IMG/VR virus record: IMGVR_UViG_2698536443_000023
Location: 1-25,114 of that record
Reading direction: 5' to 3' (one strand)
Length of the DNA stretch: 25,114 nucleotides
Source of the DNA: a virus
Taxonomy: Duplodnaviria; Heunggongvirae; Uroviricota; Caudoviricetes
A program made the translations under genes and the position numbers. This document shows positions 6,585-25,114 of the stretch, piece after piece (positions within the stretch are counted from its first letter, which is position 1; the number at the start of each line of letters is the position of its first letter). The notes beneath the pieces were generated by a model. That model was not told the origin of the DNA. It saw only the letters and a program-made list of their open reading frames with translations, and did not search any database.

Positions 6585-7868
6585 TTATTGTGGCCAGTCC
6601 CAGTTATCATATTGTCGAATTTTTTCTGATAACACTTGAGGCGCGCTACCGTGAGTTACATTTTCAGCATAACCAATCGTGCCGACATAGTTAATATCAT
6701 CAATATCAAGTGTATTGGCGTCCCATGGCCGTATCTTGCGAGTTGGTTCACAGATAGAAACGTCACGATTGATGGTTTTTAACCACGAGATATTTATTAC
6801 TTTTGCGCCTGCAGCTTTTAGATACATCCTGGCTGTTTCATGAGCATTTCCTTCAGTGCAAAAATCATCAATAACTAATATTTTCTTACCTTTCAAGTTC
6901 GGCGGGTTGGTATATCTTTTGCCGGTGTTGATATTTTTAATAGGGGCAGGGTTTAAATGAACGGTATTTATTTGAGATGTGATGTTTACTTCTTGTTTAG
7001 CTATTCGGGCTTGCTGTGACTTAATGGCTGTTGTATGTCGTAAGAATAGATCTTTTAAATACTTTCCTTTGAATGAGACCGCCAAACCTTTTAGGTCATG
7101 CTCCATAATATCTGCTAGTTTATAAGGGTTTTCAGCGTTATGTCCAACGTAGGTGGTTATAAAACTTGCTCCCTCACTTAAGCCAGAGAAATAAATGCTG
7201 GCACCAAGATATCTTATCCAAAAATCGGGGCTTCCAACCGATAGCTTGGCGAGGTCTCTTGCATTGGCTGAATACATTGTAAATTCAGTGACATATGTGC
7301 TAAATGGTGCCAAGGCGTAGTAGTGAACATCTTCATTAAAATGCCCTTGCCATCCCCACAACTGTTCTCTTAAGCAAAAAACATCAATAAATCTAGCGAT
7401 CTCTTTGGGTTCTGAAAATTGAAAACCGTACTCAGTAACCGGTTCATACCAGGTTGCATTAATAAATAGGGTGTTACCGTTGGTAGCTGCTTGTAAGTCT
7501 TCCCGAGAACGCCCAACATAGATCATTTCGTTTCGTTTCAACTCTAATGCAGCCATGATGAAATCTATGGCCTTCCCTGTTTGTTTTGCTGGTATGTTGT
7601 TGTCGAGTTCATGGCAAAAGTGAATTGATTCTGGGAATTTCCTTTTTAGGTATTCGTCTAGTGTTACGACCCCGTCATGTGTTTCCACGTTTCTATTTTT
7701 ATTTGTCAAGAAGATAACTTTAATCCCTTTTGATGACAAAAACGCAAACAACTTACGCAATTCCGAGTCGATTCTAGATTTTAGTTCCTGAGGTTGAGTG
7801 TTAGATGTTAATGGTAATACAACATCTGCGATTGAAAATATAACTGCCTTTAAATACATACTATTCAT
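6585..7868 (-). CDS. Phosphoribosyltransferase (PRTase)-like protein, cargo in the tin/old hotspot
   Basis: 427-aa ORF. Type I PRTase PRPP-binding-like motif KKILVIDDFCTEGNAHE at residues about 328-345 (nt about 6849-6884). Start overlaps upstream gene stop (alternative ATG at 7859). AT-rich relative to the phage backbone. Confidence 0.75.
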   Translation of the reverse strand: MNSMYLKAVIFSIADVVLPLTSNTQPQELKSRIDSELRKLFAFLSSKGIKVIFLTNKNRNVETHDGVVTLDEYLKRKFPESIHFCHELDNNIPAKQTGKAIDFIMAALELKRNEMIYVGRSREDLQAATNGNTLFINATWYEPVTEYGFQFSEPKEIARFIDVFCLREQLWGWQGHFNEDVHYYALAPFSTYVTEFTMYSANARDLAKLSVGSPDFWIRYLGASIYFSGLSEGASFITTYVGHNAENPYKLADIMEHDLKGLAVSFKGKYLKDLFLRHTTAIKSQQARIAKQEVNITSQINTVHLNPAPIKNINTGKRYTNPPNLKGKKILVIDDFCTEGNAHETARMYLKAAGAKVINISWLKTINRDVSICEPTRKIRPWDANTLDIDDINYVGTIGYAENVTHGSAPQVLSEKIRQYDNWDWPQ

Positions 7869-8910
7869 CTCCCAGAAGAGAAAGTTGCTGTGTTTTTACA
7901 CCGGATGCTGATTTAATTAAGTTTTGAACGTCTTTAAAATCGGATAGTGGAATGTTCATTATCGTAGCTGAGTACTCCGACAAGGCATGTTTAATTTCTT
8001 CTTGAGGTGTGGTTCCCCTAAGTAAAGGACAAAGTATCGCTCTTTTTAATTGAGCTGCATATCTCACAGTATGAGATGTCCCACTTTTTAGGCCCCATTC
8101 AACTGGGATTAATACATCACTTAAAGCTGCTTGAATTCTATTTCTACGAACAAAGTTTTCCTGTGATGGCTTTTGGTTTGGTAAATACTCAGTAAGAATC
8201 AGTCCGCCATTATTAACAATATGGCCTCTCATCTCGCCACTATTTTTGGGGTAATTTGAGTTTACACCTGTACCTAGCACAGCAATTGTCGGTATTTTAA
8301 ATAATAGGGATGCTTCATGTGCAGATTGATCTATACCATATGCTAAACCGCTTACAGTTGAATAATCTGAATCTATAAATTGTGAGATTACTGCTTGAGT
8401 TAAATAAATTCCAAGCGCGGTTGGGTTTCTAGTGCCGACAACTCCAACACACTTTTTATCTAGCAAAGATACATCGCCTTGAGCAAACAACCAGAAAGGC
8501 GGTTCAGACAGGTCATTCAACTTGTCTGGATAGTTTGGAGAACCATGGTGGATAATTTTGTAACCACTATTATGATAATGTGTGAGTAAGATTTTAGCCG
8601 TAGAAATCATGCGGTCCCGAAAAACAGACCAATTGCTTTCATTCAAATAATAAGGTTGGCGATGAAGTTTTACTCCGAGTAGATACTCAAAGTTGGCTAA
8701 TGTTTGGCTGGTAACAATGTCTCTAAATCTGATTCCCTTTTGAGCAACTTTATATAGAGTCCAATAACTCACGCCATGTATTTCTGATAGTGCCAACAAA
8801 GCGGCACTTTCTGTGTTCCATCGAGCTGTTTCAATATCCGTCATAATGTTCGCCAAAATGGAAGATTTTTTATCGCTTTTATCATAGGTTTGTATAAAAG
8901 TGTAGCACAT
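7861..8910 (-). CDS. DprA/Smf-like (SLOG superfamily Rossmann-fold) protein, cargo in the tin/old hotspot
   Basis: 349-aa ORF. Central region VGVVGTRNPTALG...VSGLAYGIDQSAHEASL...IAVLGTGVNSNYPKNS...RRNRIQAALSDVLIPVEWGLKSGTSHT matches the conserved DprA Rossmann core (VGsR, SGlAxGID, AVLGxG..YP, RNRI, SGSL/T). Overlaps the downstream PRTase gene by 8 nt. Confidence 0.8.
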   Translation of the reverse strand: MCYTFIQTYDKSDKKSSILANIMTDIETARWNTESAALLALSEIHGVSYWTLYKVAQKGIRFRDIVTSQTLANFEYLLGVKLHRQPYYLNESNWSVFRDRMISTAKILLTHYHNSGYKIIHHGSPNYPDKLNDLSEPPFWLFAQGDVSLLDKKCVGVVGTRNPTALGIYLTQAVISQFIDSDYSTVSGLAYGIDQSAHEASLLFKIPTIAVLGTGVNSNYPKNSGEMRGHIVNNGGLILTEYLPNQKPSQENFVRRNRIQAALSDVLIPVEWGLKSGTSHTVRYAAQLKRAILCPLLRGTTPQEEIKHALSEYSATIMNIPLSDFKDVQNLIKSASGVKTQQLSLLGDE

Positions 8911-9068: not shown

Positions 9069-9208
9069 GCGCGCTGGCGGTGGTGCTGATTTTATTTTTT
9101 CAGCGTCTGAGCGCGTCGTGAAGGCGTTTACTTGGCCTGCTGGGCGTTGGTGTGTCTGCGGGGTGTTTTGTGCGGTGGTGAGCGTGTGAGGGCGTGATGA
9201 CGGGGTGT

Positions 9209-9230
9209 AAAAAAGCCGCCCGCAGGCGGC
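9209..9230 (-). terminator. Rho-independent terminator downstream of Q
   Basis: On the minus strand: GCCGCC-TGCG-GGCGGC hairpin followed by TTTTTT, immediately after the Q stop codon. Confidence 0.6.
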
Positions 9231-9235
9231 GATGT

Positions 9236-10270
9236 TCAGCCGTTGTCAGTGTCCAGTGAGTAGTTTTTAAAGCGGATGACCTCCTGACCGAGCCAGCCGT
9301 TTATCTCGCGGATCCTGTCCTGTAGCGGGATAAGCTCATTGCGGACAAAGACCTTTGCCACTTTCTCAATATCACCCAGCGACCCGACGTTCTCCGGCTT
9401 GCCGCCCATCAACTGAAAGGGGATGCGGTGCGCGTCCAGCAGGTCAGCGGCGCTGGCTTTTTTGATATTAAAAAAATCGTCCTTCGTTGCCACTTCACTG
9501 AGCGGGATAATTTTGATGCCGTCGGCTTTCCCCTGTGGGGCATAGAGAAACAGATTTTTAAAGTTGTTGCGGCCTTTCGACTTCACCATGTTTTCGCGGA
9601 GCATTTCGATATCGTTGCGATCCTGTACGGCATCAGTGACGTACATGATGTATCCGGCATGAGCGCCGTTTTCGTAATACTTGCGGCGGAACAGTGTGGC
9701 TGATTCATTCAGCCAGGCAGAATTAAGGGCGCTGAGATATTCCGGCAGGCCGTACAGCTCCTGATTGATATCCGGCTCCAGCAGGTGAAACACGGAGCCG
9801 GGCGTGAAGGCTGTCGGCTCGTTGAAGGACGGCACCCACCAGTAAACATCCTCCTCCACGCCACGGCGGGTATATTTTGCCGGTGAGGTTTCCAGTCTGA
9901 TGACCTTACCGGTGGTGCTGTAACGCTTTTCCAGAAACGCATTACCGAACACCAGAAAATCCAGCACAAAGCGGCTGAAATCCTGTTGCGAAAGCCACGG
10001 ATGCGGGATAAATGTCGAGGCCAGAATATTGCGTTTAACGTAAATCGGTGAGCTGTGATGCACGGCAGCACGCAGACTTTTTGCCAGACCGGTAAAGCTG
10101 ACCGGTGGCTCATACCATCTGCCGTTACTGATGCACTCGACGTAATCCAGAATGTCACGGCGGTCGAGTACCGGCACCGGCTCACCAAAGGTGAATGCCT
10201 CCATTTTCGGGGCGCTGGCGGTCATTTTTTTTGCCGCAGGTTGCGGTGTTTTCCCTTTTTTCTTGCTCAT
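9236..10270 (-). CDS. Q: Portal (capsid) protein Q
   Basis: 344-aa ORF matching P2 Q in size and in position, leftward from the divergent late promoter region and next to cos. Confidence 0.95.
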   Translation of the reverse strand: MSKKKGKTPQPAAKKMTASAPKMEAFTFGEPVPVLDRRDILDYVECISNGRWYEPPVSFTGLAKSLRAAVHHSSPIYVKRNILASTFIPHPWLSQQDFSRFVLDFLVFGNAFLEKRYSTTGKVIRLETSPAKYTRRGVEEDVYWWVPSFNEPTAFTPGSVFHLLEPDINQELYGLPEYLSALNSAWLNESATLFRRKYYENGAHAGYIMYVTDAVQDRNDIEMLRENMVKSKGRNNFKNLFLYAPQGKADGIKIIPLSEVATKDDFFNIKKASAADLLDAHRIPFQLMGGKPENVGSLGDIEKVAKVFVRNELIPLQDRIREINGWLGQEVIRFKNYSLDTDNG

Positions 10271-12042: not shown

Positions 12043-12215
12043 GAATACCTCGCCGTGATGAATACACGGCAAGGCTACTGAGTCGCGCCCCGCGATTCGC
12101 TAAGGTGCTGTTGTGTCAGTGATAAGCCATCCGGGACTGATGGCGGAGGATGCGCATCGTCGGGAAACTGATGCCGACATGTGACTCCTCTAATCACTAT
12201 TCAGGACTCCTGACA
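12043..12215. promoter_or_regulatory. Divergent late promoter region between P and O (expected Ogr-dependent promoters)
   Basis: Intergenic region between divergently transcribed late operons, as in P2. No operator motif confidently identified by eye. Confidence 0.4.
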
Positions 12216-13070
12216 ATGGCAAAAAAAGTCTCAAAATTCTTTCGTATCGGCGTTGAGGGTGACACCTGTGACGGGCGTGTCATCAGTGCGCAGGATATTC
12301 AGGAAATGGCCGAAACCTTTGACCCGCGAGTCTATGGTTGCCGCATTAACCTGGAACATCTGCGCGGCATCCTGCCTGACGGTATTTTTAAGCGTTATGG
12401 CGATGTGGCCGAACTGAAGGCCGAAAAGATTGACGATGATTCGGCGCTGAAAGGCAAATGGGCGCTGTTTGCGAAAATCACCCCGACCGATGACCTTATC
12501 GCGATGAACAAGGCCGCGCAGAAGGTCTACACCTCAATGGAAATTCAGCCGAACTTTGCCAACACCGGCAAATGTTATCTGGTGGGTCTGGCCGTCACCG
12601 ATGACCCGGCAAGCCTCGGCACGGAATACCTGGAATTCTGCCGCACGGCAAAACACAACCCCCTGAACCGCTTCAAATTAAGCCCTGAAAACCTGATTTC
12701 AGTGGCAACGCCTGTTGAGCTGGAATTTGAAGACCTGCCTGAAACCGTGTTCACCGCCCTGACCGAAAAGGTGAAATCCATTTTTGGCCGCAAACAGGCC
12801 AGCGATGATGCCCGTCTGAATGATGTGCATGAAGCGGTGACCGCTGTTGCTGAACATGTGCAGGAAAAACTGAGTGCCACTGAGCAGCGACTCGCTGAGA
12901 TGGAAACCGCCTTTTCCGCACTTAAGCAGGATGTGACTGACAGGGCGGATGAAACCAGCCAGGCATTCACCCGCCTGAAAAACAGTCTCGACAGCACCGA
13001 AAGTCTGACCCAGCAGCGCCGCAGTAAAGCCACCGGCGGTGGCGGTGATGCCCTGCTGACGAACTGCTGA
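12216..13070 (+). CDS. O: Capsid scaffolding protein O
   Basis: 284-aa product from MAKKVSKFFRIGVEG, matching P2 O. The six-frame ORF start at 12150 is likely too long. Confidence 0.9.
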   Translation: MAKKVSKFFRIGVEGDTCDGRVISAQDIQEMAETFDPRVYGCRINLEHLRGILPDGIFKRYGDVAELKAEKIDDDSALKGKWALFAKITPTDDLIAMNKAAQKVYTSMEIQPNFANTGKCYLVGLAVTDDPASLGTEYLEFCRTAKHNPLNRFKLSPENLISVATPVELEFEDLPETVFTALTEKVKSIFGRKQASDDARLNDVHEAVTAVAEHVQEKLSATEQRLAEMETAFSALKQDVTDRADETSQAFTRLKNSLDSTESLTQQRRSKATGGGGDALLTNC

Positions 13071-13128
13071 CCGGCGTCAGTCAGTCCGGGAAAACCTTCA
13101 CGATTAACCCTTAATTTCAGGAAAAACT

Positions 13129-14202
13129 ATGCGCCAGGAAACCCGCTTTAAATTTAATGCCTACCTGTCCCGTGTTGCCGAACTGAACGGCATCGACGCC
13201 GGTGATGTGTCGAAAAAATTCACCGTTGAACCGTCGGTCACCCAGACCCTGATGAACACCATGCAGGAGTCCTCTGACTTTCTGACCCGCATCAACATTG
13301 TGCCGGTCAGCGAAATGAAAGGGGAAAAAATTGGCATCGGTGTCACCGGCTCCATCGCCAGCACCACCGACACCGCCGGTGGCACCGAGCGTCAGCCGAA
13401 GGACTTCTCGAAGCTGGCGTCAAACAAGTACGAATGCGACCAGATTAACTTCGATTTTTATATCCGCTACAAAACGCTGGACCTGTGGGCGCGTTATCAG
13501 GATTTCCAGCTCCGTATCCGTAACGCCATTATCAAACGCCAGTCCCTTGATTTCATCATGGCCGGTTTTAACGGCGTGAAGCGTGCCGAAACCTCTGACC
13601 GCAACAGCAATCCGATGCTGCAGGATGTGGCGGTCGGCTGGCTGCAGAAATACCGTAATGAAGCCCCGGCGCGCGTGATGAGCAAGGTCACTGACGAGGA
13701 AGGGCACACCACCTCTGAGGTCATCCGCGTGGGTAAGGGCGGTGATTATGCCAGCCTTGATGCACTGGTGATGGATGCGACCAACAACCTGATTGAGCCG
13801 TGGTATCAGGAAGACCCTGACCTTGTGGTGATTGTGGGACGTCAGCTACTGGCGGACAAGTATTTTCCCATCGTCAACAAGGAGCAGGACAACAGCGAAA
13901 TGCTGGCCGCTGACGTCATCATCAGCCAGAAACGCATCGGCAACCTGCCAGCGGTACGCGTCCCGTACTTCCCGGCGGATGCGATGCTCATCACGAAGCT
14001 GGAAAACCTGTCCATCTACTACATGGATGACAGCCATCGCCGCGTGATTGAGGAAAACCCGAAACTCGACCGCGTGGAGAACTACGAGTCAATGAACATT
14101 GATTACGTGGTGGAAGACTACGCCGCCGGTTGTCTGGTGGAAAAAATCAAGGTCGGTGACTTCTCCACACCGGCTAAAGCGACCGCAGAGCCGGGAGCGT
14201 AA
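13129..14202 (+). CDS. N: Major capsid protein N
   Basis: 357-aa ORF with size and order identical to P2 N. Confidence 0.95.
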   Translation: MRQETRFKFNAYLSRVAELNGIDAGDVSKKFTVEPSVTQTLMNTMQESSDFLTRINIVPVSEMKGEKIGIGVTGSIASTTDTAGGTERQPKDFSKLASNKYECDQINFDFYIRYKTLDLWARYQDFQLRIRNAIIKRQSLDFIMAGFNGVKRAETSDRNSNPMLQDVAVGWLQKYRNEAPARVMSKVTDEEGHTTSEVIRVGKGGDYASLDALVMDATNNLIEPWYQEDPDLVVIVGRQLLADKYFPIVNKEQDNSEMLAADVIISQKRIGNLPAVRVPYFPADAMLITKLENLSIYYMDDSHRRVIEENPKLDRVENYESMNIDYVVEDYAAGCLVEKIKVGDFSTPAKATAEPGA

Positions 14203-14205
14203 CCG

Positions 14206-14949
14206 ATGACGAGTCCCGCACAGCGCCACATGATGCGGGTCTCGGCAGCGATGACCGCGCAGCGGGAAGCCGCCCCGCTGCGACATGCAACTGTCTATGA
14301 GCAGATGCTGGTCAAGCTGGCCGCAGACCAGCGCACACTGAAAGCGATTTATTCAAAAGAGCTGAAGGCCGCGAAAAAACGCGAACTGCTGCCGTTCTGG
14401 TTGCCGTGGGTGAACGGCGTGCTGGAGCAGGGCAAAGGTGCACAGGATGACATTCTGATGACGGTCATGCTGTGGCGTCTGGATACCGGCGATATTGCCG
14501 GTGCGCTGGAGATTGCCCGTTATGCCCTGAAGTACGGTCTGACCATGCCGGGTAAACACCGCCGCACCCCGCCGTACATGTTCACCGAGGAGGTGGCGCT
14601 CGCGGCCATGCGTGCTCACGCTGCCGGTGAGTCTGTGGATACCCGCCTGCTGACGGACACCCTTGAACTGACTGCCACGGCAGACATGCCTGATGAAGTG
14701 CGCGCAAAGCTGCACAAAATCACCGGTCTGTTTCTGCGTGACGCTGGTGATGCCGCAGGTGCGCTGGCGCACCTGCAACGTGCGACACAGCTCGACTGTC
14801 AGGCAGGCGTCAAAAAAGAGATTGAACGACTGGAGCGGGAGCTGAAACCGAAGCCGGAGCCGCAGCCAAAAGCGGCCACCCGCGCCCCGCGTAAGACCCG
14901 GAGCGTGACACCGGCAAAACGTGGACGCCCGAAAAAGAAAGCCAGTTAA
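14206..14949 (+). CDS. M: Terminase small (endonuclease) subunit M
   Basis: 247-aa ORF with basic C-terminal tail; size and order match P2 M. Confidence 0.9.
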   Translation: MTSPAQRHMMRVSAAMTAQREAAPLRHATVYEQMLVKLAADQRTLKAIYSKELKAAKKRELLPFWLPWVNGVLEQGKGAQDDILMTVMLWRLDTGDIAGALEIARYALKYGLTMPGKHRRTPPYMFTEEVALAAMRAHAAGESVDTRLLTDTLELTATADMPDEVRAKLHKITGLFLRDAGDAAGALAHLQRATQLDCQAGVKKEIERLERELKPKPEPQPKAATRAPRKTRSVTPAKRGRPKKKAS

Positions 14950-15048
14950 CAACCGAATGCGCCCCGCGCCAGGGCGGCACGCCGGTCAGTGAGGGTGAAT
15001 CACCTGACACTGCACCGGCGTCCACCGCCCGACTTTTCAGAGGTAGTC

Positions 15049-15558
15049 ATGATGACGCTGATTATTCCGCGAAAGGAGGCTCCTGTATCCGGTGAGGGTA
15101 CGGTGGTCATCCCGCAACCGGCAGGCGACGAGCCGGTGATTAAAAACACGTTCTTTTTTCCCGATATCGACCCGAAGCGCGTCCGGGAACGTATGCGCCT
15201 TGAGCAGACCGTCGCCCCCGCCCGTCTGCGTGAGGCCATCAAGTCAGGCATGGCGGAGACGAATGCGGAGCTGTACGAGTACCGCGAACAGAAAATTGCC
15301 GCCGGTTTTACGCGTCTGGCGGACGTCCCGGCGGACGACATCGACGGTGAAAGCATCAAAGTTTTTTACTACGAGCGCGCCGTGTGTGCGATGGCGACCG
15401 CGTCACTTTATGAACGTTATCGCGGTGTGGATGCCAGTGCGAAAGGCGACAAGAAGGCCGACAGCATTGACAGCACCATTGATGAGCTGTGGCGGGATAT
15501 GCGCTGGGCAGTGGCGCGCATCCAGGACAAGCCGCGCTGCATCGTGAGTCAAATCTGA
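15049..15558 (+). CDS. L: Head completion/stabilisation protein L
   Basis: 169-aa product from MMTLIIPRK, matching P2 L in length. Six-frame ORF extends upstream to 14989. Confidence 0.85.
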   Translation: MMTLIIPRKEAPVSGEGTVVIPQPAGDEPVIKNTFFFPDIDPKRVRERMRLEQTVAPARLREAIKSGMAETNAELYEYREQKIAAGFTRLADVPADDIDGESIKVFYYERAVCAMATASLYERYRGVDASAKGDKKADSIDSTIDELWRDMRWAVARIQDKPRCIVSQI

Positions 15559-15761
15559 TGAAGACCTTTGCGCTACAGGGCGACACGCTCGACGCCATCT
15601 GTGTCCGGTATTACGGGCGCACTGAGGGTGTGGTTGAGACCGTGCTCGCCACAAATCCGGGACTGGCTGAACTGGGTGCGGTGCTGCCACACGGCACCGC
15701 CGTCGAACTGCCCGACGTTCAGACCGCGCCCGTGGCTGAAACTGTCAATCTGTGGGAGTAA
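15558..15761 (+). CDS. X: Tail protein X (LysM-like)
   Basis: 67-aa product MKTFALQGDTLDAICVRYYG. ATG overlaps the L stop (TGATG). Matches P2 X. Confidence 0.85.
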   Translation: MKTFALQGDTLDAICVRYYGRTEGVVETVLATNPGLAELGAVLPHGTAVELPDVQTAPVAETVNLWE

Positions 15762-15764
15762 CGC

Positions 15765-16046
15765 ATGACAGCAGAAGAAAAAAGCGTCCTGTCGCTTTTC
15801 ATGATTGGGGTGCTGATTGTTGTCGGCAAGGTGCTTGCCGGTGGTGAACCCATCACCCCGCGTCTGTTTATCGGGCGCATGTTGCTCGGTGGTTTTGTCT
15901 CGATGGTTGCCGGTGTTGTTCTGGTGCAGTTTCCTGACCTGTCACTGCCTGCGGTGTGCGGCATCGGCTCCATGCTGGGTATCGCCGGTTATCAGGTGAT
16001 TGAGATTGCCATTCAGCGCCGTTTTAAGGGCAGGGGGAAACAGTAA
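15765..16046 (+). CDS. Y: Holin Y
   Basis: 93-aa product with hydrophobic transmembrane segments and charged C-terminus; matches P2 Y in size and position. Confidence 0.9.
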   Translation: MTAEEKSVLSLFMIGVLIVVGKVLAGGEPITPRLFIGRMLLGGFVSMVAGVVLVQFPDLSLPAVCGIGSMLGIAGYQVIEIAIQRRFKGRGKQ

Positions 16047-16543
16047 TGCCGGTAATTAACACGCATCAGAATATCGCGGCCTTTCTCGACATGCTGGCAG
16101 TGTCCGAAGGGACGGCGAATCACCCGCTGACGAAAAACCGGGGCTATGACGTGATAGTCACCGGACTGGACGGGAAGCCGGAAATTTTCACCGACTACAG
16201 TGACCACCCGTTCGCACATGGCCGACCGGCGAAGGTGTTTAACCGTCGCGGTGAAAAATCCACGGCCTCCGGTCGCTATCAGCAGCTTTACCTGTTCTGG
16301 CCGCACTACCGCAAACAGCTTGCCCTGCCTGATTTCAGTCCGTTGTCACAGGACAGGCTCGCCATTCAGTTGATCCGCGAACGCGGTGCGCTGGATGACA
16401 TCCGGGCGGGACGCATTGAGCGCGCCATTTCACGCTGTCGCAATATCTGGGCGTCCCTGCCGGGTGCCGGTTACGGTCAGCGTGAGCATTCACTGGAAAA
16501 ACTGGTCACCGTCTGGCGTACCGCTGGCGGCGTACCGGCTTAA
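16046..16543 (+). CDS. K: Endolysin K (lambda R-like lysozyme/transglycosylase fold)
   Basis: 165-aa product. Motifs FLDMLAVSEGT, GYDVIV, FTDYSDHP, NIWASLPGAGYGQ resemble lambda R endolysin. Position after the holin. Confidence 0.9.
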   Translation: MPVINTHQNIAAFLDMLAVSEGTANHPLTKNRGYDVIVTGLDGKPEIFTDYSDHPFAHGRPAKVFNRRGEKSTASGRYQQLYLFWPHYRKQLALPDFSPLSQDRLAIQLIRERGALDDIRAGRIERAISRCRNIWASLPGAGYGQREHSLEKLVTVWRTAGGVPA

Positions 16544-16557
16544 ACGGAGTAAACACC

Positions 16558-16983
16558 ATGAAGAAATTATCCCTTTCACTGATGCTGAACGTGTCGCTGG
16601 CGCTGATGCTGGCACTGTCCCTGATTTACCCGCAGAGCGTGGCCGTCAGTTTTGTCGCCGCCTGGGCGATTCTGGCGACGGTTATCTGTATGGTTGCCGG
16701 TGGTGTCGGCGTGTATGCCACTGAGTATGTGCTGGAACGCTACGGGCGGGAGCTGCCACCGGAATCGCTGGCCGTGAAGATTGTCACGTCGCTGTTTTTA
16801 CAGCCGGTGCCGTGGCGCAGACGGGCGGCGGCTCTGGTGGTGATGGTGGCGACGTTTGTCTCGCTGATTGCTGCCGGGTGGATTTTTACCGCGCTGATTT
16901 ATCTCATGACGTCGCTGTTTTTCCGGCTGATACGCACGGCCTGCCGTCAGCGTATTGAGGGGCGGGAACCATGTCAAGGCTGA
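16558..16983 (+). CDS. lysA: Lysis-timing membrane protein LysA
   Basis: 141-aa multi-transmembrane product in the P2 lysA position. Confidence 0.8.
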   Translation: MKKLSLSLMLNVSLALMLALSLIYPQSVAVSFVAAWAILATVICMVAGGVGVYATEYVLERYGRELPPESLAVKIVTSLFLQPVPWRRRAAALVVMVATFVSLIAAGWIFTALIYLMTSLFFRLIRTACRQRIEGREPCQG

Positions 16984-17396
16984 TGACTGTGCTGGTTGTG
17001 TTGTTATCGCTGGCGGTGGCCGGTCTGTTTCTGGTGAAACACAAAAATGACAGCCTGCGCGCCTCGCTGGACAGGGCGAATAACGTCGCCAGCGGGCAGC
17101 AGACGACCATCACCATGCTGAAAAATCAGCTTCATGTTGCGCTCACCAGGGCAGACAAAAACGAGCTGGCGCAGGTGGCACTGCGTCAGGAACTGGAAAA
17201 TGCCGCGAAGCGTGAAGCACAGCGCGAGAAAGCCATCACGAGGTTACTGAATGAAAACGAAGATTTCCGCCGCTGGTATGGCGCTGACCTGCCTGATGCT
17301 GTGCGCCGGTTGCACCAGCGCCCCGCCTGCACCGACGCCAGTGATTGTCCACAACGCCTGCCCGAAAGTGAGTCTTTGCCCGATGCCGGGCAGTGA
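16971..17396 (+). CDS. lysB: LysB, Rz-like inner-membrane spanin
   Basis: 141-aa product with N-terminal transmembrane segment followed by a charged helical region; matches P2 LysB. Confidence 0.85.
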   Translation: MSRLMTVLVVLLSLAVAGLFLVKHKNDSLRASLDRANNVASGQQTTITMLKNQLHVALTRADKNELAQVALRQELENAAKREAQREKAITRLLNENEDFRRWYGADLPDAVRRLHQRPACTDASDCPQRLPESESLPDAGQ

Positions 17397-17541
17397 CCCG
17401 CAGACGAACGGCGATTTAAGTGCCGATATCCGGCAGCTTGAGAACGCGCTGGCACGCTGTGCCAGCCAGGTAAAAATGATTAAACACTGTCAGGACGAAA
17501 ACGATGCTCAAACCCGACAGCCTGCGCAGGGCGCTGACTGA
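17251..17541 (+). CDS. lysC: LysC, Rz1-like outer-membrane lipoprotein spanin, embedded in lysB in another frame
   Basis: 96-aa product with lipoprotein signal (LCAGC lipobox) and proline-rich region. Begins inside lysB in a different frame and extends into the start of R, as in P2. Confidence 0.8.
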   Translation: MKTKISAAGMALTCLMLCAGCTSAPPAPTPVIVHNACPKVSLCPMPGSDPQTNGDLSADIRQLENALARCASQVKMIKHCQDENDAQTRQPAQGAD

Positions 17542-17971
17542 TGCCGTCACGGTGCTGAAAACTAACCCCGATATGCTTCGGATATTCGTGGATAACGGGA
17601 GTATTGCCTCCACACTGGCGACGTCGCTGTCATTCGAAAAGCGTTACACGCTCAATGTCATTGTGACCGATTTTACCGGTGATTTTGACCTGCTCATCGT
17701 GCCGGTGCTGGCGTGGCTGCGGGAAAATCAGCCCGACATCATGACCACCGACGAAGGCCAGAAAAAGGGCTTCACGTTTTATGCAGACATCAACAATGAC
17801 AGCAGTTTTGATATCAGCATCAGCCTGATGCTGACCGAGCGCACGCTGGTCAGTGAGGTGGACGGCGCGCTGCATGTGAAGAATATCCCGGAACCTCTGC
17901 CGCCGGAGCCGGTCACCCGCCCGATGGAGCTGTATATCAATGGCGAACTGGTGAGTAAGTGGGATGAATGA
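17504..17971 (+). CDS. R: Tail completion protein R
   Basis: 155-aa ORF with P2 synteny and size. Confidence 0.9.
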   Translation: MLKPDSLRRALTDAVTVLKTNPDMLRIFVDNGSIASTLATSLSFEKRYTLNVIVTDFTGDFDLLIVPVLAWLRENQPDIMTTDEGQKKGFTFYADINNDSSFDISISLMLTERTLVSEVDGALHVKNIPEPLPPEPVTRPMELYINGELVSKWDE

Positions 17972-18416
17972 GTTTAAGCGTTTTGAAGACCGGCTGACCG
18001 GACTGATTGAATCGTTGTCACCGTCAGGGCGTCGGAGACTGAGCGCCGAACTGGCGAAGCGCCTGCGGCAGAGTCAGCAGCGTCGGGTGATGGCACAGAA
18101 AGCCCCGGACGGCACACCCTACGTGCCACGCCAGCAGCAGAGCGCCAGAAAAAAGACTGGTCGTGTTAAGCGAAAAATGTTTGCGAAACTTATCACCAGT
18201 CGTTTTTTGCATATCCGCGCCAGCCCGGAGCAGGCATCAATGGAGTTTTACGGCGGGAAGTCACCGAAAATCGCCAGTGTGCATCAGTTCGGTCTGTCGG
18301 AAGAAAACCGGAAAGACGGTAAGAAAATTGATTATCCGGCGCGTCCTCTGCTCGGCTTTACCGGTGAGGATGTGCAGATGATTGAAGAGATTATCCTGGC
18401 TCACCTCGACCGTTAG
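17964..18416 (+). CDS. S: Tail completion protein S
   Basis: 150-aa ORF with P2 synteny and size. Confidence 0.9.
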   Translation: MNEFKRFEDRLTGLIESLSPSGRRRLSAELAKRLRQSQQRRVMAQKAPDGTPYVPRQQQSARKKTGRVKRKMFAKLITSRFLHIRASPEQASMEFYGGKSPKIASVHQFGLSEENRKDGKKIDYPARPLLGFTGEDVQMIEEIILAHLDR

Positions 18417-18482
18417 TTGTGCCATTCCCGACACCTCATCGTCACATTGCCGCCGGTATGACCCGGCGGCATCCTTCCCGTT

Positions 18483-19118
18483 ATGAACACTCTCGCAAAT
18501 ATTCAGGAACTCGCGCGCGCACTGCGCAATATGATCCGCACCGGTCTTGTCGTCGAAACCGACCTTAACGCCGGTCGCTGCCGTGTGCAGACTGGCGGCA
18601 TGTGCACCGACTGGCTTCAGTGGCTGACCCATCGCGCCGGTCGTTCGCGCACGTGGTGGGCACCTTCCGAGGGGGAACAGGTGCTGATTCTGTCCGTGGG
18701 CGGCGAACTCGACACCGCGTTCGTTCTGCCGGGGATTTATTCCGGCGATAACCCCGCGCCGTCTGCGTCGGCGGATGCCCTGCATATCCGTTTCCCTGAC
18801 GGGGCGGTGATTGAGTACGAACCCGAAACCAGTGCACTCACGGTAAGCGGAATTAAAACGGCCAGCGTGACGGCTTCTGATTCTGTTACTGCCACGGTGC
18901 CGGTGGTCACGGTGAAAGCATCAACCCGCGTTACCCTGGACACACCGGAGGTGGTCTGCACCAACAGGCTGATTACCGGCACGCTGGAAGTGCAGAAGGG
19001 CGGGACGATGCGCGGCAACATTGAACACACCGGCGGTGAACTCTCATCAAACGGTAAGGTACTGCATACCCATAAACACCCCGGCGACAGCGGCGGCACA
19101 ACCGGGGGACCTCTATGA
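18483..19118 (+). CDS. V: Baseplate central spike protein V
   Basis: 211-aa ORF with P2 synteny and size. Confidence 0.9.
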   Translation: MNTLANIQELARALRNMIRTGLVVETDLNAGRCRVQTGGMCTDWLQWLTHRAGRSRTWWAPSEGEQVLILSVGGELDTAFVLPGIYSGDNPAPSASADALHIRFPDGAVIEYEPETSALTVSGIKTASVTASDSVTATVPVVTVKASTRVTLDTPEVVCTNRLITGTLEVQKGGTMRGNIEHTGGELSSNGKVLHTHKHPGDSGGTTGGPL

Positions 19119-19462
19119 CTGCGCGTTATCTCGGAATGAATCGCAGTGATGGCCTGACTGTCACTGACCTTGAGCATATCAGCCAGAGTATCGGCGATAT
19201 CCTGCGCACACCGGTCGGCTCACGGGTGATGCGTCGTGATTACGGCTCGTTGCTGGCGTCAATGATTGACCAGCCGCAGACCCCGGCGCTTGAGTTGCAG
19301 ATTAAGGTCGCCTGTTACATGGCGGTGCTGAAATGGGAACCCCGCGTCACCCTGTCATCCGTCACCACGGCGCGCAGTTTTGACGGGCGAATGACGGTCA
19401 CGTTAACCGGCCAGCACAACGACACCGGCCAGCCACTTTCATTAACCATCCCTGTGAGTTGA
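19115..19462 (+). CDS. W: Baseplate wedge protein W (gp25-like)
   Basis: 115-aa ORF with P2 synteny and size; start overlaps the V stop. Confidence 0.9.
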   Translation: MTARYLGMNRSDGLTVTDLEHISQSIGDILRTPVGSRVMRRDYGSLLASMIDQPQTPALELQIKVACYMAVLKWEPRVTLSSVTTARSFDGRMTVTLTGQHNDTGQPLSLTIPVS

Positions 19463-19466
19463 AACC

Positions 19467-20375
19467 ATGCCGATTATCGACCTGAACCAGCTACCCGCAC
19501 CAGATGTGGTCGAGGAGCTGGACTTTGAAAGCATTCTCGCTGAACGCAAGGCGACACTGATTTCCCTTTACCCGGAAGACCAGCAGGAGGCGGTCGCCCG
19601 TACCCTGACGCTGGAATCTGAGCCTCTCGTCAAACTGCTGGAGGAAAATGCTTATCGTGAGCTTATCTGGCGTCAGCGTGTGAATGAGGCCGCACGGGCG
19701 GTGATGCTGGCCTGTGCCGCCGGTAATGACCTTGATGTGATTGGTGCCAATTACAACACCACGCGCCTGACTATCACCCCGGCAGATGATTCGACCATTC
19801 CGCCGACACCGGCAGTGATGGAATCTGACACCGATTATCGTCTGCGTATTCAGCAGGCTTTTGAGGGCTTAAGCGTCGCCGGGTCAGTGGGAGCCTATCA
19901 GTATCATGGTCGCAGTGCTGACGGGCGTGTCGCGGATATTTCTGTCACCAGTCCGTCTCCTGCCTGTGTCACCATCTCTGTGCTGTCACGTGAAAATAAC
20001 GGCGTCGCATCCGAAGACCTGCTGGCTGTGGTGCGTAACGCCCTTAATGGCGAGGACGTCAGGCCGGTGGCCGACCGCGTGACCGTGCAGTCTGCCGCCA
20101 TCGTTGAATACCAGATAAACGCCACGCTTTACCTTTACCCTGGTCCCGAAAGCGAACCCATCCGCGCTGCCGCTGTGAAAAAGCTGGAAGCGTATATCAC
20201 GGCACAGCACCGGCTGGGGCGCGACATCCGTCTGTCTGCCATTTATGCCGCTTTGCATGTGGAAGGTGTGCAGCGTGTCGAACTGGCTGCACCACTGGCC
20301 GACATCGTGCTCAACAGTACGCAGGCGTCTTTCTGTACCGAATACCGCGTCGTGACCGGAGGCTCGGATGAGTGA
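19467..20375 (+). CDS. J: Baseplate protein J
   Basis: 302-aa ORF with P2 synteny and size. Confidence 0.9.
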   Translation: MPIIDLNQLPAPDVVEELDFESILAERKATLISLYPEDQQEAVARTLTLESEPLVKLLEENAYRELIWRQRVNEAARAVMLACAAGNDLDVIGANYNTTRLTITPADDSTIPPTPAVMESDTDYRLRIQQAFEGLSVAGSVGAYQYHGRSADGRVADISVTSPSPACVTISVLSRENNGVASEDLLAVVRNALNGEDVRPVADRVTVQSAAIVEYQINATLYLYPGPESEPIRAAAVKKLEAYITAQHRLGRDIRLSAIYAALHVEGVQRVELAAPLADIVLNSTQASFCTEYRVVTGGSDE

Positions 20376-20898
20376 TTCGCGACTGCTGCCGACCGGCTCA
20401 TCACCGCTTGAGGTCGCCGCCGCAAAAGCCTGTGCGGAAATTGAAAAAACGCCGGTCAGTATTCGTGAGCTGTGGAACCCGGACACCTGTCCGGCAAATC
20501 TGCTGCCGTGGCTGGCGTGGGCGTTTTCGGTCGACAGGTGGGATGAAAAGTGGCCGGAAGCGACAAAACGCGCCGTTATCCGCGATGCGTATTTCATCCA
20601 CTGTCATAAAGGCACAATAGGTGCAATCCGGCGTGTGGTGGAGCCGCTCGGCTATCTCATCAACGTGACGGAGTGGTGGGAAACCAGTGACCCGCCAGGC
20701 ACCTTCCGGCTTGATATTGGTGTACTGGAAAGCGGCATCACAGAGGCAATGTATCAGGAAATGGAACGGCTTATTGCTGATGCCAAACCTGCAAGCCGTC
20801 ATCTTATTGGCCTGAACATTACCCGGGACATTCCCGGCTACCTGTTCGCCGGTGGTGTGGCTTACGACGGCGATGTAATTACGGTTTACCCCGGATAA
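20368..20898 (+). CDS. I: Baseplate protein I
   Basis: 176-aa ORF with P2 synteny and size; overlaps the J stop. Confidence 0.9.
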   Translation: MSDSRLLPTGSSPLEVAAAKACAEIEKTPVSIRELWNPDTCPANLLPWLAWAFSVDRWDEKWPEATKRAVIRDAYFIHCHKGTIGAIRRVVEPLGYLINVTEWWETSDPPGTFRLDIGVLESGITEAMYQEMERLIADAKPASRHLIGLNITRDIPGYLFAGGVAYDGDVITVYPG

Positions 20899-20908
20899 GT
20901 GAGGAATA

Positions 20909-23158
20909 ATGAGCACAAAATTCAGAACCGTTATCACCACTGCCGGTGCAGCAAAGCTGGCAGCGGCAACCGCACCGGGAGGGCGGAAGGTCAACATTAC
21001 CACGATGGCCGTCGGGGATGGCGGTGGTAAATTGCCTGTCCCGGATGCCGGACAGACCGGGCTTATCCACGAAGTCTGGCGACATGCGCTGAACAAAATC
21101 AGCCAGGACAAACGAAACAGTAATTATATTATCGCAGAGCTGGTTATTCCGCCGGAGGTGGGCGGTTTCTGGATGCGTGAACTTGGCCTGTACGATGATG
21201 CGGGAACGCTAATTGCCGTGGCGAACATGGCCGAAAGTTATAAGCCAGCCCTTGCCGAAGGCTCAGGGCGTTCGCAGACCTGCCGCATGGTCATCATCGT
21301 CAGCAGTGTGGCCTCAGTGGAGCTGACCATTGACACCACAACGGTGATGGCGACGCAGGATTACGTTGATGACAAAATTGCAGAGCACGAACAGTCACGA
21401 CGTCACCCGGACGCTTCTCTGACCGCAAAAGGTTTTACTCAGTTAAGCAGCGCGACCAACAGCACGTCTGAAACACTGGCCGCAACGCCGAAAGCAGTAA
21501 AGACCGCCTATGACCTTGCTAACGGGAAATATACTGCGCAGGATGCCACCACAGCGCGAAAAGGTCTTGTCCAACTCAGTAGTGCCACCAACAGCACGTC
21601 TGAAACGCTCGCCGCAACACCAAAAGCGGTTAAGGCAGCATATGACCTTGCTAATGGCAAATACACCGCGCAGGACGCCACCACCGCGCGAAAAGGCCTT
21701 GTTCAGCTCAGTAGTGCCACCAACAGCGATTCTGAAACGCTTGCGGCAACGCCAAAGGCGGTTAAGGCCGCGTATGACCTTGCTAACGGGAAATACACTG
21801 CACAGGATGCCACCACGGCGCGGAAAGGCCTTGTCCAGCTCAGTAGCGCCACCAACAGTGATTCTGAAACGCAGGCCGCAACACCAAAAGCGGTGAAGTC
21901 TGCCTATGACAATGCTGAAAAACGTCTTCAGAAAGATCAGAACGGTGCGGATATTCCTGATAAAGGACGCTTCCTGAGTAACATTAATGTTTACAGCAAA
22001 GGTGAAGTGGATAAGAAAAAGGGAATGCGAAAGTATTCGTTTGCAGCCCCTGCAAATGTCGTTGCCGGGAAGTGGTATCCCGTTATCTTTCGCCGTGCTG
22101 CCAGCCTTTCAGGAGAAATGGCATCCCGCGTCGTTATTTCCACTGGTTGTTATAACAGCGATTATGTAATGAATAACTGCGAGTTTAATGGCATGGTTAT
22201 GCCCGGAGGCTGGACTGATCGTGGTTCATATGCGGCAGGTTATTTCTGGACGTATCAGACTAATGAGCGTTCAATCCATTCCATTGTTACAAGCCTGAAA
22301 GATGATGATGTATGTAGTGTTTTTTATGTTGAAGCCAGAGCTTTCCCTGTGCAAATTCTTGCAGAGGAAGGGCTAACGGTTATTGTTCCGACAGAGGATT
22401 ATGTCGTCGGTCAAACGACATATAAGTGGGGGGCAACTAATCCTGCTACAGAAAGCACGAACGCACAGGCTATTCTGGATTTTAAAAATGGGCGCGGTTA
22501 TTACTGCTCACATCCATTTATTTCCAGCCTTTCGGGAAATGCTGCAACAGCAACGAAGTTAGCGAACGCAAGAAATATTAATGGTGTCAGATTTGATGGC
22601 TCTGCTGATATAAATATTAATACACTGGTATCCAGAAACCGTGTTACTGCATTAGGTGGGAGCGTAAAGGGGACACCAGGTATTCAGATGTATGAGGCAT
22701 ACAACAATGGCTACCCAACAGCCTATGGTAATGTGCTTCATCTCACTGGCGTAACCGCAGTAGGAGAGGGTGAGTTACTTATTGGCTGGAGTGGAACCAG
22801 CGGTGCTCATGCTCCGGCATATATTCGCTCCCGACGAGATACCACAGATGCTAACTGGTCTGGATGGGCGCAACTATATACAACTGCTCATAAACCCTCA
22901 GCGGGAGATGTTGGTGCATACACCAAAGCTGAATCAGATTCACGTTATGTGAGAGACATGCGGCTGGGCGGTGCATCTACATATAAACCAGCAAATAATG
23001 GTACTACATGGACGCATCAGGCTCCGTCAGGTTGCGTATATACCGGCATTATTGTTCAGGATACCGGCTCAAACTCTGCCGATAACATTGGTGGCGTATA
23101 TTACAGACCGGTGCAGAAATACATTAACGGGACATGGTATAACGTGGCGCAGGTATAA
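20909..23158 (+). CDS. H: Tail fibre protein H, with expanded internal tail-fibre repeats and divergent distal domain
   Basis: 749-aa ORF in the P2 H position. Contains the tail-fibre repeat motif (QLSSATNS.SETLAATPKAVK). The distal half is AT-rich and looks mosaic. Confidence 0.9.
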   Translation: MSTKFRTVITTAGAAKLAAATAPGGRKVNITTMAVGDGGGKLPVPDAGQTGLIHEVWRHALNKISQDKRNSNYIIAELVIPPEVGGFWMRELGLYDDAGTLIAVANMAESYKPALAEGSGRSQTCRMVIIVSSVASVELTIDTTTVMATQDYVDDKIAEHEQSRRHPDASLTAKGFTQLSSATNSTSETLAATPKAVKTAYDLANGKYTAQDATTARKGLVQLSSATNSTSETLAATPKAVKAAYDLANGKYTAQDATTARKGLVQLSSATNSDSETLAATPKAVKAAYDLANGKYTAQDATTARKGLVQLSSATNSDSETQAATPKAVKSAYDNAEKRLQKDQNGADIPDKGRFLSNINVYSKGEVDKKKGMRKYSFAAPANVVAGKWYPVIFRRAASLSGEMASRVVISTGCYNSDYVMNNCEFNGMVMPGGWTDRGSYAAGYFWTYQTNERSIHSIVTSLKDDDVCSVFYVEARAFPVQILAEEGLTVIVPTEDYVVGQTTYKWGATNPATESTNAQAILDFKNGRGYYCSHPFISSLSGNAATATKLANARNINGVRFDGSADININTLVSRNRVTALGGSVKGTPGIQMYEAYNNGYPTAYGNVLHLTGVTAVGEGELLIGWSGTSGAHAPAYIRSRRDTTDANWSGWAQLYTTAHKPSAGDVGAYTKAESDSRYVRDMRLGGASTYKPANNGTTWTHQAPSGCVYTGIIVQDTGSNSADNIGGVYYRPVQKYINGTWYNVAQV
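21428..21907 (+). repeat. In-frame tandem repeats, 132-bp unit (44 aa), about 3.6 copies, inside H
   Basis: Copies start at 21428, 21560, 21692 and 21824. Unit KGLVQLSSATNS(T/D)SETLAATPKAVKAAYDLANGKYTAQDATTAR is near-identical between copies; the last copy diverges after PKAVKSAYD. Confidence 0.85.
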
Positions 23159-23161
23159 TTT

Positions 23162-23689
23162 ATGCAGCATTTGATAAATATAACGGCGGGTAATCCAAAA
23201 ACGGTTGAACAATATCAATTGACAAAGAATTTTGATGTTGTCTGGTTTTTTTCAGAAGATGGTAAGAACTGGTACGAAGAACAAAAGTATTTTGCTGATG
23301 ACACGATAAAAATAGCGTACGACAAAGATAATATCATCCACTATGTGGAAAAGGATGTGACAGCTATCAGACCGGATGGATTAAGTGTTGTTGAAGTGGC
23401 GGATATTACTGCTAACCGACGGGCGGACATTTCAGGGAACTGGATGTTTAAGGACGGCAAAGTGATTAAACGCATTTATACGGCAGAGGAATTACAGCAG
23501 CAGGCAGAAATTCGGAAAGCCAGACTTCTTGCAGATGCTGAATCCGTGATTTTGCCGCTGGAGCGCGCGGTCAGACTGAACATGGCAACAGATGAGGAGC
23601 GTAGCCGACTGGAATCATGGGAACGCTACAGCGTTCTGGTCAGTCGTGTGGATCCTGCAAATCCTGAATGGCCGGAAATGCCACAATAA
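23162..23689 (+). CDS. G: Tail fibre assembly chaperone G
   Basis: 175-aa ORF directly downstream of H, matching P2 G in size and position (tail fibre assembly protein family). Confidence 0.9.
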
Positions 23690-23879
23690 GCTGTATAAGC
23701 TCTGGTGTGAGCTCACATATCTATAACACAGAGTAACCCCTAATCTGACAGTCCGCTCTGTGCCAGGAGCGGACATTGATAACATCAAGGCTCTCTGGTC
23801 AGAGGGACTCAGGTCATTTACAGCATACAAAGAAAAAATTGAAATATTTTTCAAATAAACACATTGCAGGGCTTAGGCC

Positions 23880-24650
23880 TTACTCTTTAGCTCGTTTGGT
23901 CATCTCATTTGCTAACTGTGTAGACCAATAATGTTGACTCTTTGCTTCTAATATGAAAAGTAGCGCTCTCACACATTGTAGCTGAGCATGCACATAAGTA
24001 TGAATATTACCAACCGAAGTAGGAACTAAGTGGGTTTCAGGTGTGTAGTAGTGGTAGATGCTCGTTTGTGAAGGATGAACATATTCGCTAAGTATGTCAT
24101 AAGTCAGTTCAAAATCACTTTCCATCTGATTAGTCTGCTTCATCTCATCTTTATAGAGTTCGCGTAAAGCAGTCATCACATGCATACTGACAGCAAGTAG
24201 GTTTTCAAAACGATATTTAGCCTCCTCAGTAAACATGTAGTCGTTCGGGTCAAATACTTCTTTCTGAATCTTTTCTTGCTCTGACTTTTTAAATCGAGAA
24301 CTATTCGTAAAGTTCAATATAACTTCGATAGCGTTATCTACACTTGCGTGTCCATTTTGGGTAGTCAAAATTTTCTCTACTTTCTTGTTTAAGAGTCGTG
24401 AGAAGGCATGAGTTTCAATCATTCCTCGGCTAACAATACAAGCGCTTTGGTATCGTTCGTTTTCGAGGAGGAGAAGCGCATCATCGAAGATGTCTATCTG
24501 CCTGTTCATAAGTAAATTGGCATAATTAACGAGATACAGTCCGCGGTCAGGGTTATATGTTTTTTCGACAATTACACCATTAATCTTGCTCAGCGCAGCT
24601 CTGGCGGCTTTTGCCTCATTCAGTCTCTGTTCTATAAGTTCTTTATACAT
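23880..24650 (-). CDS. Hypothetical protein of unknown function, cargo at the P2 Z/fun hotspot
   Basis: 256-aa ORF on the opposite strand to the flanking late genes. AAGGAAA Shine-Dalgarno before the ATG at 24650. Markedly AT-rich. No domain recognised. Occupies the variable locus between G and FI. Confidence 0.7.
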   Translation of the reverse strand: MYKELIEQRLNEAKAARAALSKINGVIVEKTYNPDRGLYLVNYANLLMNRQIDIFDDALLLLENERYQSACIVSRGMIETHAFSRLLNKKVEKILTTQNGHASVDNAIEVILNFTNSSRFKKSEQEKIQKEVFDPNDYMFTEEAKYRFENLLAVSMHVMTALRELYKDEMKQTNQMESDFELTYDILSEYVHPSQTSIYHYYTPETHLVPTSVGNIHTYVHAQLQCVRALLFILEAKSQHYWSTQLANEMTKRAKE

Positions 24651-24976
24651 GCTTTGTTTCCTTACAGGAGGATGTGTATCAACGAATAATCATTCCGCCT
24701 TTTGTCAGCTTGACTGTAAGGTATCATGCTGAAGTTAGCCATACAAAGCTCTGCCCATTATCAGTTTACCCAAAGCAGACTGTCAGATTTGATAGCGTTT
24801 GGGCTATGTAAATTGTCAGTCGGAAAATGAGTGAGTACAAATCAGGACAGGCGGGCAAATTGCCCGCCTTTTCTTTACCGGTGGTTGTGCTGTCGATTAG
24901 CCAACCGGGACAAATAGCCTGACATCTCCGGCACAACTGAAAATACCACTCACCCATTAACCACGGAGTTAAACGG

Positions 24977-25027
24977 ATGAGTGACTATCATCACGGCGTG
25001 CAGGTGCTGGAGATTAACGACGGCACC
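24977..25027 (+). pseudogene. FI: Tail sheath gene FI, interrupted after codon 17 by IS2
   Basis: ATG at 24977 with GGAG upstream encodes MSDYHHGVQVLEINDGT, matching the P2 FI N-terminus as recalled. The reading frame then runs into the IS2 terminal sequence. Confidence 0.7.
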
Positions 25028-25114
25028 TGGATTTGCCCCTATATTTCCAGACATCTGTTATCACTTAACCCATTACAAGCCCGCTGCCGCAGATATTCCC
25101 GTGGCGAGCGATAA
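25028..25114 (-). mobile_element. IS2 (IS3 family) right end, partial; the element continues beyond the window
   Basis: Reverse complement of 25028-25114 matches the IS2 right terminus as I recall it (...CGCTCGCCACGGGAATATCTGCGGCAGCGGGCTTGTAATGGGTTAAGTGATAACAGATGTCTGGAAATATAGGGGCAAATCCA). Recalled from memory, not searched. Confidence 0.75.
25039..25113 (-). CDS. insD: IS2 transposase (orfB/InsD) C-terminal fragment, partial at window edge
   Basis: Minus-strand translation gives ...YRSPREYLRQRACNGLSDNRCLEI followed by a stop, consistent with the IS3-family transposase C-terminus. Confidence 0.65.
   Translation of the reverse strand, partial: YRSPREYLRQRACNGLSDNRCLEI

Follow-up and report, generated by a model that had tools for sequence, protein, structure and literature searches.

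The 25,114-nucleotide stretch of DNA analysed here (the window) is a P2-like prophage of Escherichia coli in which the fun(Z) slot is filled by a single conserved gene of the DUF5677 family. We consider this gene an unvalidated candidate for a single-gene defence system, and, judged from its sequence, its family and the surroundings of its relatives, it probably acts against phages, whatever the mechanism. The defence reading is based on strong guilt by association and on a domain link to the Aditi system.

A single-gene cassette in the Z/fun slot

The preliminary description of this DNA had assigned the locus to the variable Z/fun slot of P2, and the comparison with P2 (NC_001895) bears this out: the flanks align to P2, where fun(Z) lies between G and FI on the minus strand, in the same slot as the 256-residue ORF found here. 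The cargo itself, as had also been proposed, consists of one gene on the opposite strand that brings its own translation signals. The minus-strand ORF at 23880–24650 starts with ATG, is the sole ORF of at least 80 residues between the stop codon of G (23689) and the start of FI (24977), and is preceded by an AAGGA Shine-Dalgarno sequence that is kept in the enterobacterial homologues. Because P2-type sequence stops at 23782 and restarts at 24771 in blastn comparisons with P2 and with two P2-like prophages holding other cargo, the cargo can be delimited as a 988-bp cassette. On its right side, 24771–25027 aligns ungapped with the pF promoter region and the FI start of P2 at 96% identity. The features of the locus are as follows.

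23162–23689, plus strand: homologue of P2 gene G (tail fibre assembly), the left border gene of the hotspot, with P2-like homology continuing to 23782
23783–24770: whole cargo cassette, 988 bp, GC content 0.393, with P2-like sequence at both borders
23783–23879, minus strand: cassette-specific 3′ region beyond the stop codon, AT-rich
23880–24650, minus strand: gene for the DUF5677 protein, 256 residues, the Pfam domain covering residues 43–202
24651–24770, minus strand: cassette-specific 5′ leader and upstream region, about 100 nt of it conserved with homologues
24659–24663, minus strand: Shine-Dalgarno sequence AAGGA, 8 nt 5′ of the ATG, conserved in enterobacterial homologues
24757–24786, minus strand: sigma-70-like promoter match, a match to the consensus only
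24771–24976, plus strand: P2-conserved pF promoter region, the right border of the hotspot, 96% identical to P2 17446–17651
24977–25027, plus strand: first 17 codons of the tail sheath gene FI, then interrupted (from the ORF and the alignment)

The GC content of the gene (0.389) is close to that of its cassette and lies below that of the late genes at 12150–21000 (0.573) and of the whole window (0.509). The preliminary description had called it much lower than that of the flanking tail genes. Because the immediate neighbours are themselves below average, with 0.441 for G and 0.462 for the C-terminal (distal) part of H, the contrast is real but smaller than had been suggested.

Upstream of the gene, the conserved part of the 5′ leader is shared with homologues in unrelated contexts, and in the window allele 16 nt that eight homologues from other genera and contexts possess (consensus ...CCTTGCTATCAAAATAACAGATCAAGAAGCTG...) are missing at 24711/24712. 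The best sigma-70-like match for the gene (24786–24757, minus strand, CTGACA-18-GATAAT) agrees with the consensus at 10 of 12 positions, in a region where the number of such matches equals the expectation from shuffling. An inverted repeat (24655–24667/24714–24726) could mask the Shine-Dalgarno sequence, but the minimum-free-energy fold does not favour this pairing. The leader showed no conserved RNA fold (consensus −2.6 kcal/mol with an unfavourable covariation term; single-sequence z-score −1.16), no tandem repeats and no match to an Rfam family. An AbiV2-like RNA antitoxin is therefore unsupported, and a type III toxin–antitoxin RNA was rejected on the same grounds.

Downstream of the stop codon, only about 16 bp align with the homologues found at lambdoid prophage ends (loci L004–L007). 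Within 23783–23879, a TTGAAA/TTTCAA palindrome followed by a T-run can be read by eye, and a terminator scan called no terminator there. On the opposite side of the cassette, ungapped transfer from P2 places the Ogr-activator site at about 24880–24908 and the transcription start of the F operon at about 24951–24953. The P2-conserved flank also contains, just 5′ of the pF promoter, a strong GC hairpin followed by a T-run (24849–24869, plus strand), which might shield the F operon from transcripts running out of the cargo slot or stop antisense transcription.

The host prophage

The other P2 hotspot, at the old/tin position (6585–8910, minus strand), holds a complete Shosta system. It consists of ShosT (6585–7868, minus strand, 427 residues, PADLOC E = 1.3e-293) and ShosA (7861–8910, minus strand, 349 residues, PADLOC E = 2.5e-232). 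The hotspot lies upstream of a minus-strand ORF of 344 residues (9236–10270) that we take to be the portal gene Q. The tail fibre gene H (20909–23158) contains, at about 21400–21900, three to four near-identical tandem units of about 45 residues (…TAQDATTARKGLVQLSSATNS[TD]SETLAATPKAVKAAYDLANGKY…).

At the right end of the window, IS2 has inserted after codon 17 of FI, and 87 bp of its terminus make up 25028–25114. This IS2 end is 97.9–98.9% identical in the six records listed and occurs at 15,233 places in E. coli genomes overall. In strain E47 the same cassette stands beside an intact FI, and the identity to the window ends at 25027. Since IS2 interrupts the sheath gene, the prophage is probably defective; it has nonetheless preserved both of its cargo cassettes, Shosta and the DUF5677 candidate, intact.

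The cargo gene encodes a DUF5677 protein

No domain had been recognised in the protein by the preliminary description. This does not hold, as Pfam DUF5677 (PF18928) matches residues 43–202 on model positions 3–159 of 166 with 42 bits against a gathering score of 27.1 (E = 1.3e-10). RefSeq annotates the same domain, naming the protein 'DUF5677 domain-containing protein' (accession WP_112924079), and 29 of 38 diverse relatives are matched by the Pfam model too. A search for remote homology, which had been put forward as a check, returned a family, DUF5677, with AbiV below threshold, but nothing significant in the PDB, either by sequence profile or by Foldseek. Repeating the protein search with the distant alignment brought back the same family only, with no bridge to AbiV or DitA.

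Other collections gave negative results. PADLOC 2.0, searched at E values up to 10, returned no family for the protein, and NCBIfam yielded nothing above threshold. The preliminary description had set its proposal against homology to a structural or morphogenetic phage protein, and this alternative was rejected, as there was no PHROG above noise, no match in BFVD and no tblastn match in the 50,697 phage records of INPHARED, among which no isolated phage carries the gene.

Conserved residues and predicted fold

The protein is soluble and hydrophilic (GRAVY −0.44, pI 6.0), without a transmembrane or hydrophobic segment, and its predicted structure is almost all-helical; on both counts the preliminary description had been right. 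AlphaFold2, run on the family alignment, returned a confident model (pLDDT 90, pTM 0.84) with predicted long helices at residues 38–63, 67–97, 100–115, 158–173, 179–189 and 218–255 and a predicted beta-hairpin at 208–217. Within the 256-residue subfamily, 27 columns are invariant among 47 sequences with identities down to 38%. When the window protein is compared with 37 distant DUF5677 relatives (15–26% identity), invariance holds only for R75, Y184, E189 and H192, with E79 and L187 coming close to it. As those residues alone stay conserved, the family signature can be written as R-x3-E in one long helix together with Y-D-x-L-S-E-x-x-H-P-[NS]. Residues ~116–157 form a subfamily-specific insert with invariant N116-S-S-R119 and Q125, which is missing from most of the distant relatives and is modelled with lower confidence.

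In the HEPN superfamily the motif closes core helix 3 and helix 2 contributes a conserved acidic residue; AbiV and the AF0298-type HEPN-T family stand out as members whose motif is non-canonical and whose conserved His is an alternative one (Anantharaman et al., PMC3710099). In AbiV, inserted flexible helices and a beta-hairpin precede the last core helices (10.1101/2024.05.05.592566). The AbiV model TIGR04498 scores the window protein at 14.1 bits, below its cut-off of 27 (E = 0.046, residues 44–79 only), and finds 4 of 37 relatives, also below threshold (best E = 0.0053); PF18728 was matched once (E = 0.0093). Such recurrent sub-threshold AbiV matches are consistent with a divergent HEPN domain of the AbiV/AF0298 branch. 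So is the placement, in the predicted model, of the nearly invariant E79 in helix 67–97 and of E189/H192 at the end of helix 179–189. The recovery of the same top structural neighbour is likewise consistent with this branch, yet Foldseek found nothing significant in the PDB, and we regard the evidence from the fold as suggestive, short of decisive.

On the other hand, the canonical Rx4-6H motif is absent from the end of core helix 3, where the protein has E189-x-x-H192. R75GMIETH81 was considered as a canonical Rx5H motif and rejected, since most homologues have Tyr in place of H81 and the stretch falls midway along the long helix 2. R119-x5-Q125 sits in the subfamily-specific insert. Because the position of the defining Rx4-6H motif carries ExxH, we keep the protein out of the HEPN superfamily. 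That it works like a HEPN RNase is our leading mechanistic hypothesis, advanced tentatively, and a metal site is its main rival.

A metal centre would place the same residues in a different chemistry. In a defence or exclusion protein of this kind, E189-x-x-H192 and E79 would bind a metal and R75 and Y184 would be catalytic or substrate-binding, making the protein a metal-dependent hydrolase (a nuclease, phosphoesterase, peptidase or nucleotide-modifying enzyme) on a four-helix bundle. Metalloproteins built on helical bundles classically bind their metal through an ExxH motif on one helix and a Glu on the neighbouring one. The superfamily-wide invariance of R75, Y184, E189 and H192, with E79 nearly invariant, fits such a site, and HEPN domains do not typically have an invariant Glu three positions ahead of the His. 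The missing canonical motif and the fact that every HEPN sequence match falls below threshold point the same way. Overall, we judge a metal centre unlikely.

Homologues lie in cargo sites and near defence systems

DUF5677 homologues are solitary at every locus examined, and a recurrent partner gene, sought in more than 25 homologous loci, was found in none, so that a conserved partner was rejected. Their positions document cargo shuffling, with one gene in at least three distinct cargo sites of P2-family elements as well as at lambdoid prophage ends and in IS-flanked islands and remnants. Homologues occupy the G|FI slot of P2 at L001 and in four IMG/VR contigs (L025–L028), stand beside gpD at the end of P2-like elements (L030, L031 and L033), and directly follow int in a 186-like prophage of Klebsiella (L011). 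Those at lambdoid prophage ends neighbour umuDC-like genes (L004–L007), others lie between IS elements or beside an integrase and an IS91 transposase (L002, L008 and L035), and one is found on a Klebsiella plasmid directly after a Phd/VapC pair (L036).

Three of these loci show further details of cargo exchange and arrangement. In E. coli ws5-3 (L002, NZ_CP110511.1, 4001–5141), a copy of the whole cassette, 86–87.5% identical, lies between two IS3 copies in an island that also has H-NS-like, DUF6387 and HTH genes, and three other complete genomes share this copy. As it retains 89 bp of post-G and 28 bp of pF-side P2 flank, the island copy is a relic of a P2 slot. The G|FI slot of an IMG/VR contig (L028, UViG_2778261348_000005, 9200–9925) holds an 83% identical homologue and an extra ORF of 241 residues that is PADLOC-negative, which indicates that the slot can take two cassettes. 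In Pseudomonas sivasensis P7 (L033, 1–10565), a P2-type tail module (tape measure, gpU, gpX, gpD and lysis-like genes) is closely followed by a 52% identical homologue and then by a DUF4276/OLD-Toprim pair; the module may represent the end of a prophage or else a tailocin cluster that has a defence islet.

We scanned 84 ORFs lying within four genes of a homologue at 14 loci and then assigned the PADLOC or Pfam matches to their loci. Of the 13 loci that are not in the G|FI slot, at least 8 have a defence match within four genes of the homologue.

L015 (Rouxiella): PDC-S35/TIR candidate
L016 (Pantoea septica): Avs4
L017 (Huaxiibacter): HEC-08 candidate
L020 (betaproteobacterial MAG): LmuA and LmuB (Lamassu)
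L021 (Kangiella): AbiEi
L022 (Pseudomonas): HEC-01B candidate/OLD-type Toprim
L024 (Rhizobiales): GajA and GajB (Gabija) and an SNF2 helicase
L029 (viral contig): retron RT type V (RT-V)

The DUF5677 gene shows the co-localisation expected of a defence gene, be it with defence systems or in the cargo hotspots of mobile elements. The neighbourhoods of its homologues, together with Shosta in the other hotspot of the prophage, make a standalone defence role considerably more likely. Published surveys contain further pointers. DefensePredictor (PMC13092281, supplement) predicts a defence role for the gene of one E. coli DUF5677 protein, WP_235778200.1, at a log-odds score of 5.74 against a cut-off of 4; the domains named for the 42 systems validated there do not include DUF5677. 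In Bacillota, DUF5677 is one of the domains with statistical enrichment beside the serine recombinases that flag defence loci (10.1101/2025.10.07.681051).

The gene could instead be an accessory gene of another kind, carried in mobile-element cargo sites and not directed against phages: an addiction or toxin-like stabilisation module, an anti-defence factor, or a regulator or lysogenic-conversion factor of use to the prophage or its host. Cargo sites hold non-defence morons too, such as the umuDC-like genes mentioned above; the plasmid-borne homologue directly follows a Phd/VapC pair; the window protein has no PADLOC match; and a Bacillota DUF5677 ORF assayed in E. faecalis with six phages fell outside the five protective ORFs (10.1101/2025.10.07.681051). 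Against such a role, the gene repeatedly has genuine defence systems as neighbours in chromosomal islands of Alpha-, Beta- and Gammaproteobacteria, its domain is found in the validated Aditi protein DitA as well as in the predicted E. coli defence protein, and it is accompanied by neither a conserved partner gene nor an antitoxin-like RNA. The lack of the gene in the isolated phages of INPHARED argues against an anti-defence or lytic-cycle role in particular. We therefore consider an accessory function outside defence improbable.

Spread and selection

A search of 5.8 billion clustered proteins found 108 homologues of about 256 residues, nearly all of them 254–263 residues long with full-length coverage. 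An exhaustive profile search of 1.84 billion representatives returned only 68 proteins at E < 1e-3. The hosts are mainly Enterobacterales, Pseudomonas, Vibrio and Xanthomonadales, with a few Alpha- and Betaproteobacteria. In a census of 5426 complete E. coli genomes, the flanks of the slot were matched in 1701 and the gene in 8; four of these carriers hold it in the G|FI slot at an identity of at least 99%, and four hold the 87.5% copy in the IS3-flanked island. Members of the 90% cluster, which comprises 36 sequence variants, occur on several hundred contigs of E. coli.

The ORF at 23880–24650 is a real gene under purifying selection, as shown by its pairwise dN/dS of 0.12–0.31 against eight homologues. 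A decaying or neutral hitch-hiker without current function, which would suit the rarity of the gene, the IS2-interrupted sheath gene of its prophage and the deletion in its leader, is very improbable given an ORF that is intact in every copy examined, these low dN/dS values, the 27 invariant columns and the spread of the gene over many genera.

Proposed mode of action

In the reading we prefer, the cassette would be a moron of the Z/fun hotspot, expressed in the lysogen, whose product is a soluble standalone DUF5677 protein acting as a one-protein abortive-infection or exclusion system against other phages. Its core would be a divergent HEPN-like four-helix bundle of the AbiV/AF0298 branch, in which the canonical Rx4-6H motif would give way, where the third core helix ends, to ExxH (E189, H192), the second core helix would supply the Arg/Glu pair (R75, E79) and Y184 would lie nearby. 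The protein, probably a dimer, may stay latent in the lysogen until it senses a component of an infecting phage; it would then cleave RNA (rRNA, tRNA or mRNA), so that translation stops before progeny are made. Taken as a whole, a lysogen-expressed moron encoding a one-protein anti-phage system strikes us as evenly balanced between right and wrong, and the HEPN-like RNase mechanism proposed for it as less likely than not. A bolder version, in which DUF5677 is a rewired offshoot of HEPN, with its Arg moved to the helix of R75/E79 and an ExxH motif, and serves as sensor and effector in one protein that aborts infection by RNA cleavage, seems to us rather doubtful.

As DUF5677 is common to this protein and to the validated Aditi system, work on R75, E79, Y184, E189 and H192 would inform both systems. 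If the rewired-HEPN chemistry were true, it would offer the first mechanistic handle on Aditi, whose DitA ends in DUF5677.

Comparison with known systems

AbiV, a HEPN RNase of Lactococcus, cleaves rRNA and is restrained by the upstream RNA abiV2 (10.1101/2024.05.05.592566). The DUF5677 protein differs from it in several respects beyond its score of 14 bits against a family cut-off of 27. The R91-x5-H97 of AbiV has at best a counterpart in R119-x5-Q125, within an insert that most DUF5677 proteins lack; the leader of the DUF5677 gene has no conserved abiV2-like small ORF or structured RNA; and the RNA-binding face of AbiV is strongly basic, whereas the window protein is slightly acidic. A link to PD-Lambda-5, a system that a survey lists as HEPN-containing, was rejected, as the PADLOC match of one distant relative to PD-Lambda-5_A (E = 0.02–0.04) is too weak. 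To the AF0298/HEPN-T protein of Archaeoglobus (PDB 2hsb) no sequence relationship could be detected. AF0298 is a minimal domain of 126 residues, usually paired with a nucleotidyltransferase in toxin–antitoxin-like operons, whereas the window gene has no such partner.

Aditi originates from Bacillota, and its DitA shares PF18928 with the window protein, both being genes of defence islands or mobile elements. The system was reportedly described by Millman et al. in 2022. DitA is the longer protein, having about 275 N-terminal residues that the window protein lacks, and acts with a second gene, ditB, whereas the slot of the window is a single ORF with no adjacent ditB partner. The PADLOC models of DitA matched neither the window protein nor its 37 relatives. 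The domain link itself comes from the DefensePredictor supplement (PMC13092281), in which PF18928 is assigned to DitA residues 276–427 with an HHpred probability of 99 (E = 2.7e-14); a 2024 survey lists Aditi as one of seven systems without an assignable domain family.

The closest likeness in position is to Fun(Z) of P2, according to whose annotation the cloned gene blocks T5. The two share the slot between G and FI, the opposite-strand orientation, the single-gene state and the logic of lysogenic conversion. They differ in length (528 against 256 residues) and have no sequence similarity, and homology was rejected (best BLASTP E = 10).

The same logic of interchangeable low-GC cassettes with their own promoter is seen in other single-gene cargo of the P2 and P4 hotspots (Rousset et al. 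2022, PMC9122126; NAR 2026, PMC13586616). The accessible part of the supplements of Rousset et al. (PMC9122126) contains neither the window protein, its accession nor DUF5677, and the P2 candidate pFR103, labelled 'Putative HEPN' there, is a different and unrelated protein. Many of these cassettes have been validated as defences, as were six of eight unknown genes at P4-satellite hotspots (PMC9122126; PMC13586616). The P2 and P4 hotspots are a repeated source of new immune systems, and the cassette described here adds to them a compact candidate of 988 bp and one gene that current detectors (PADLOC) miss.
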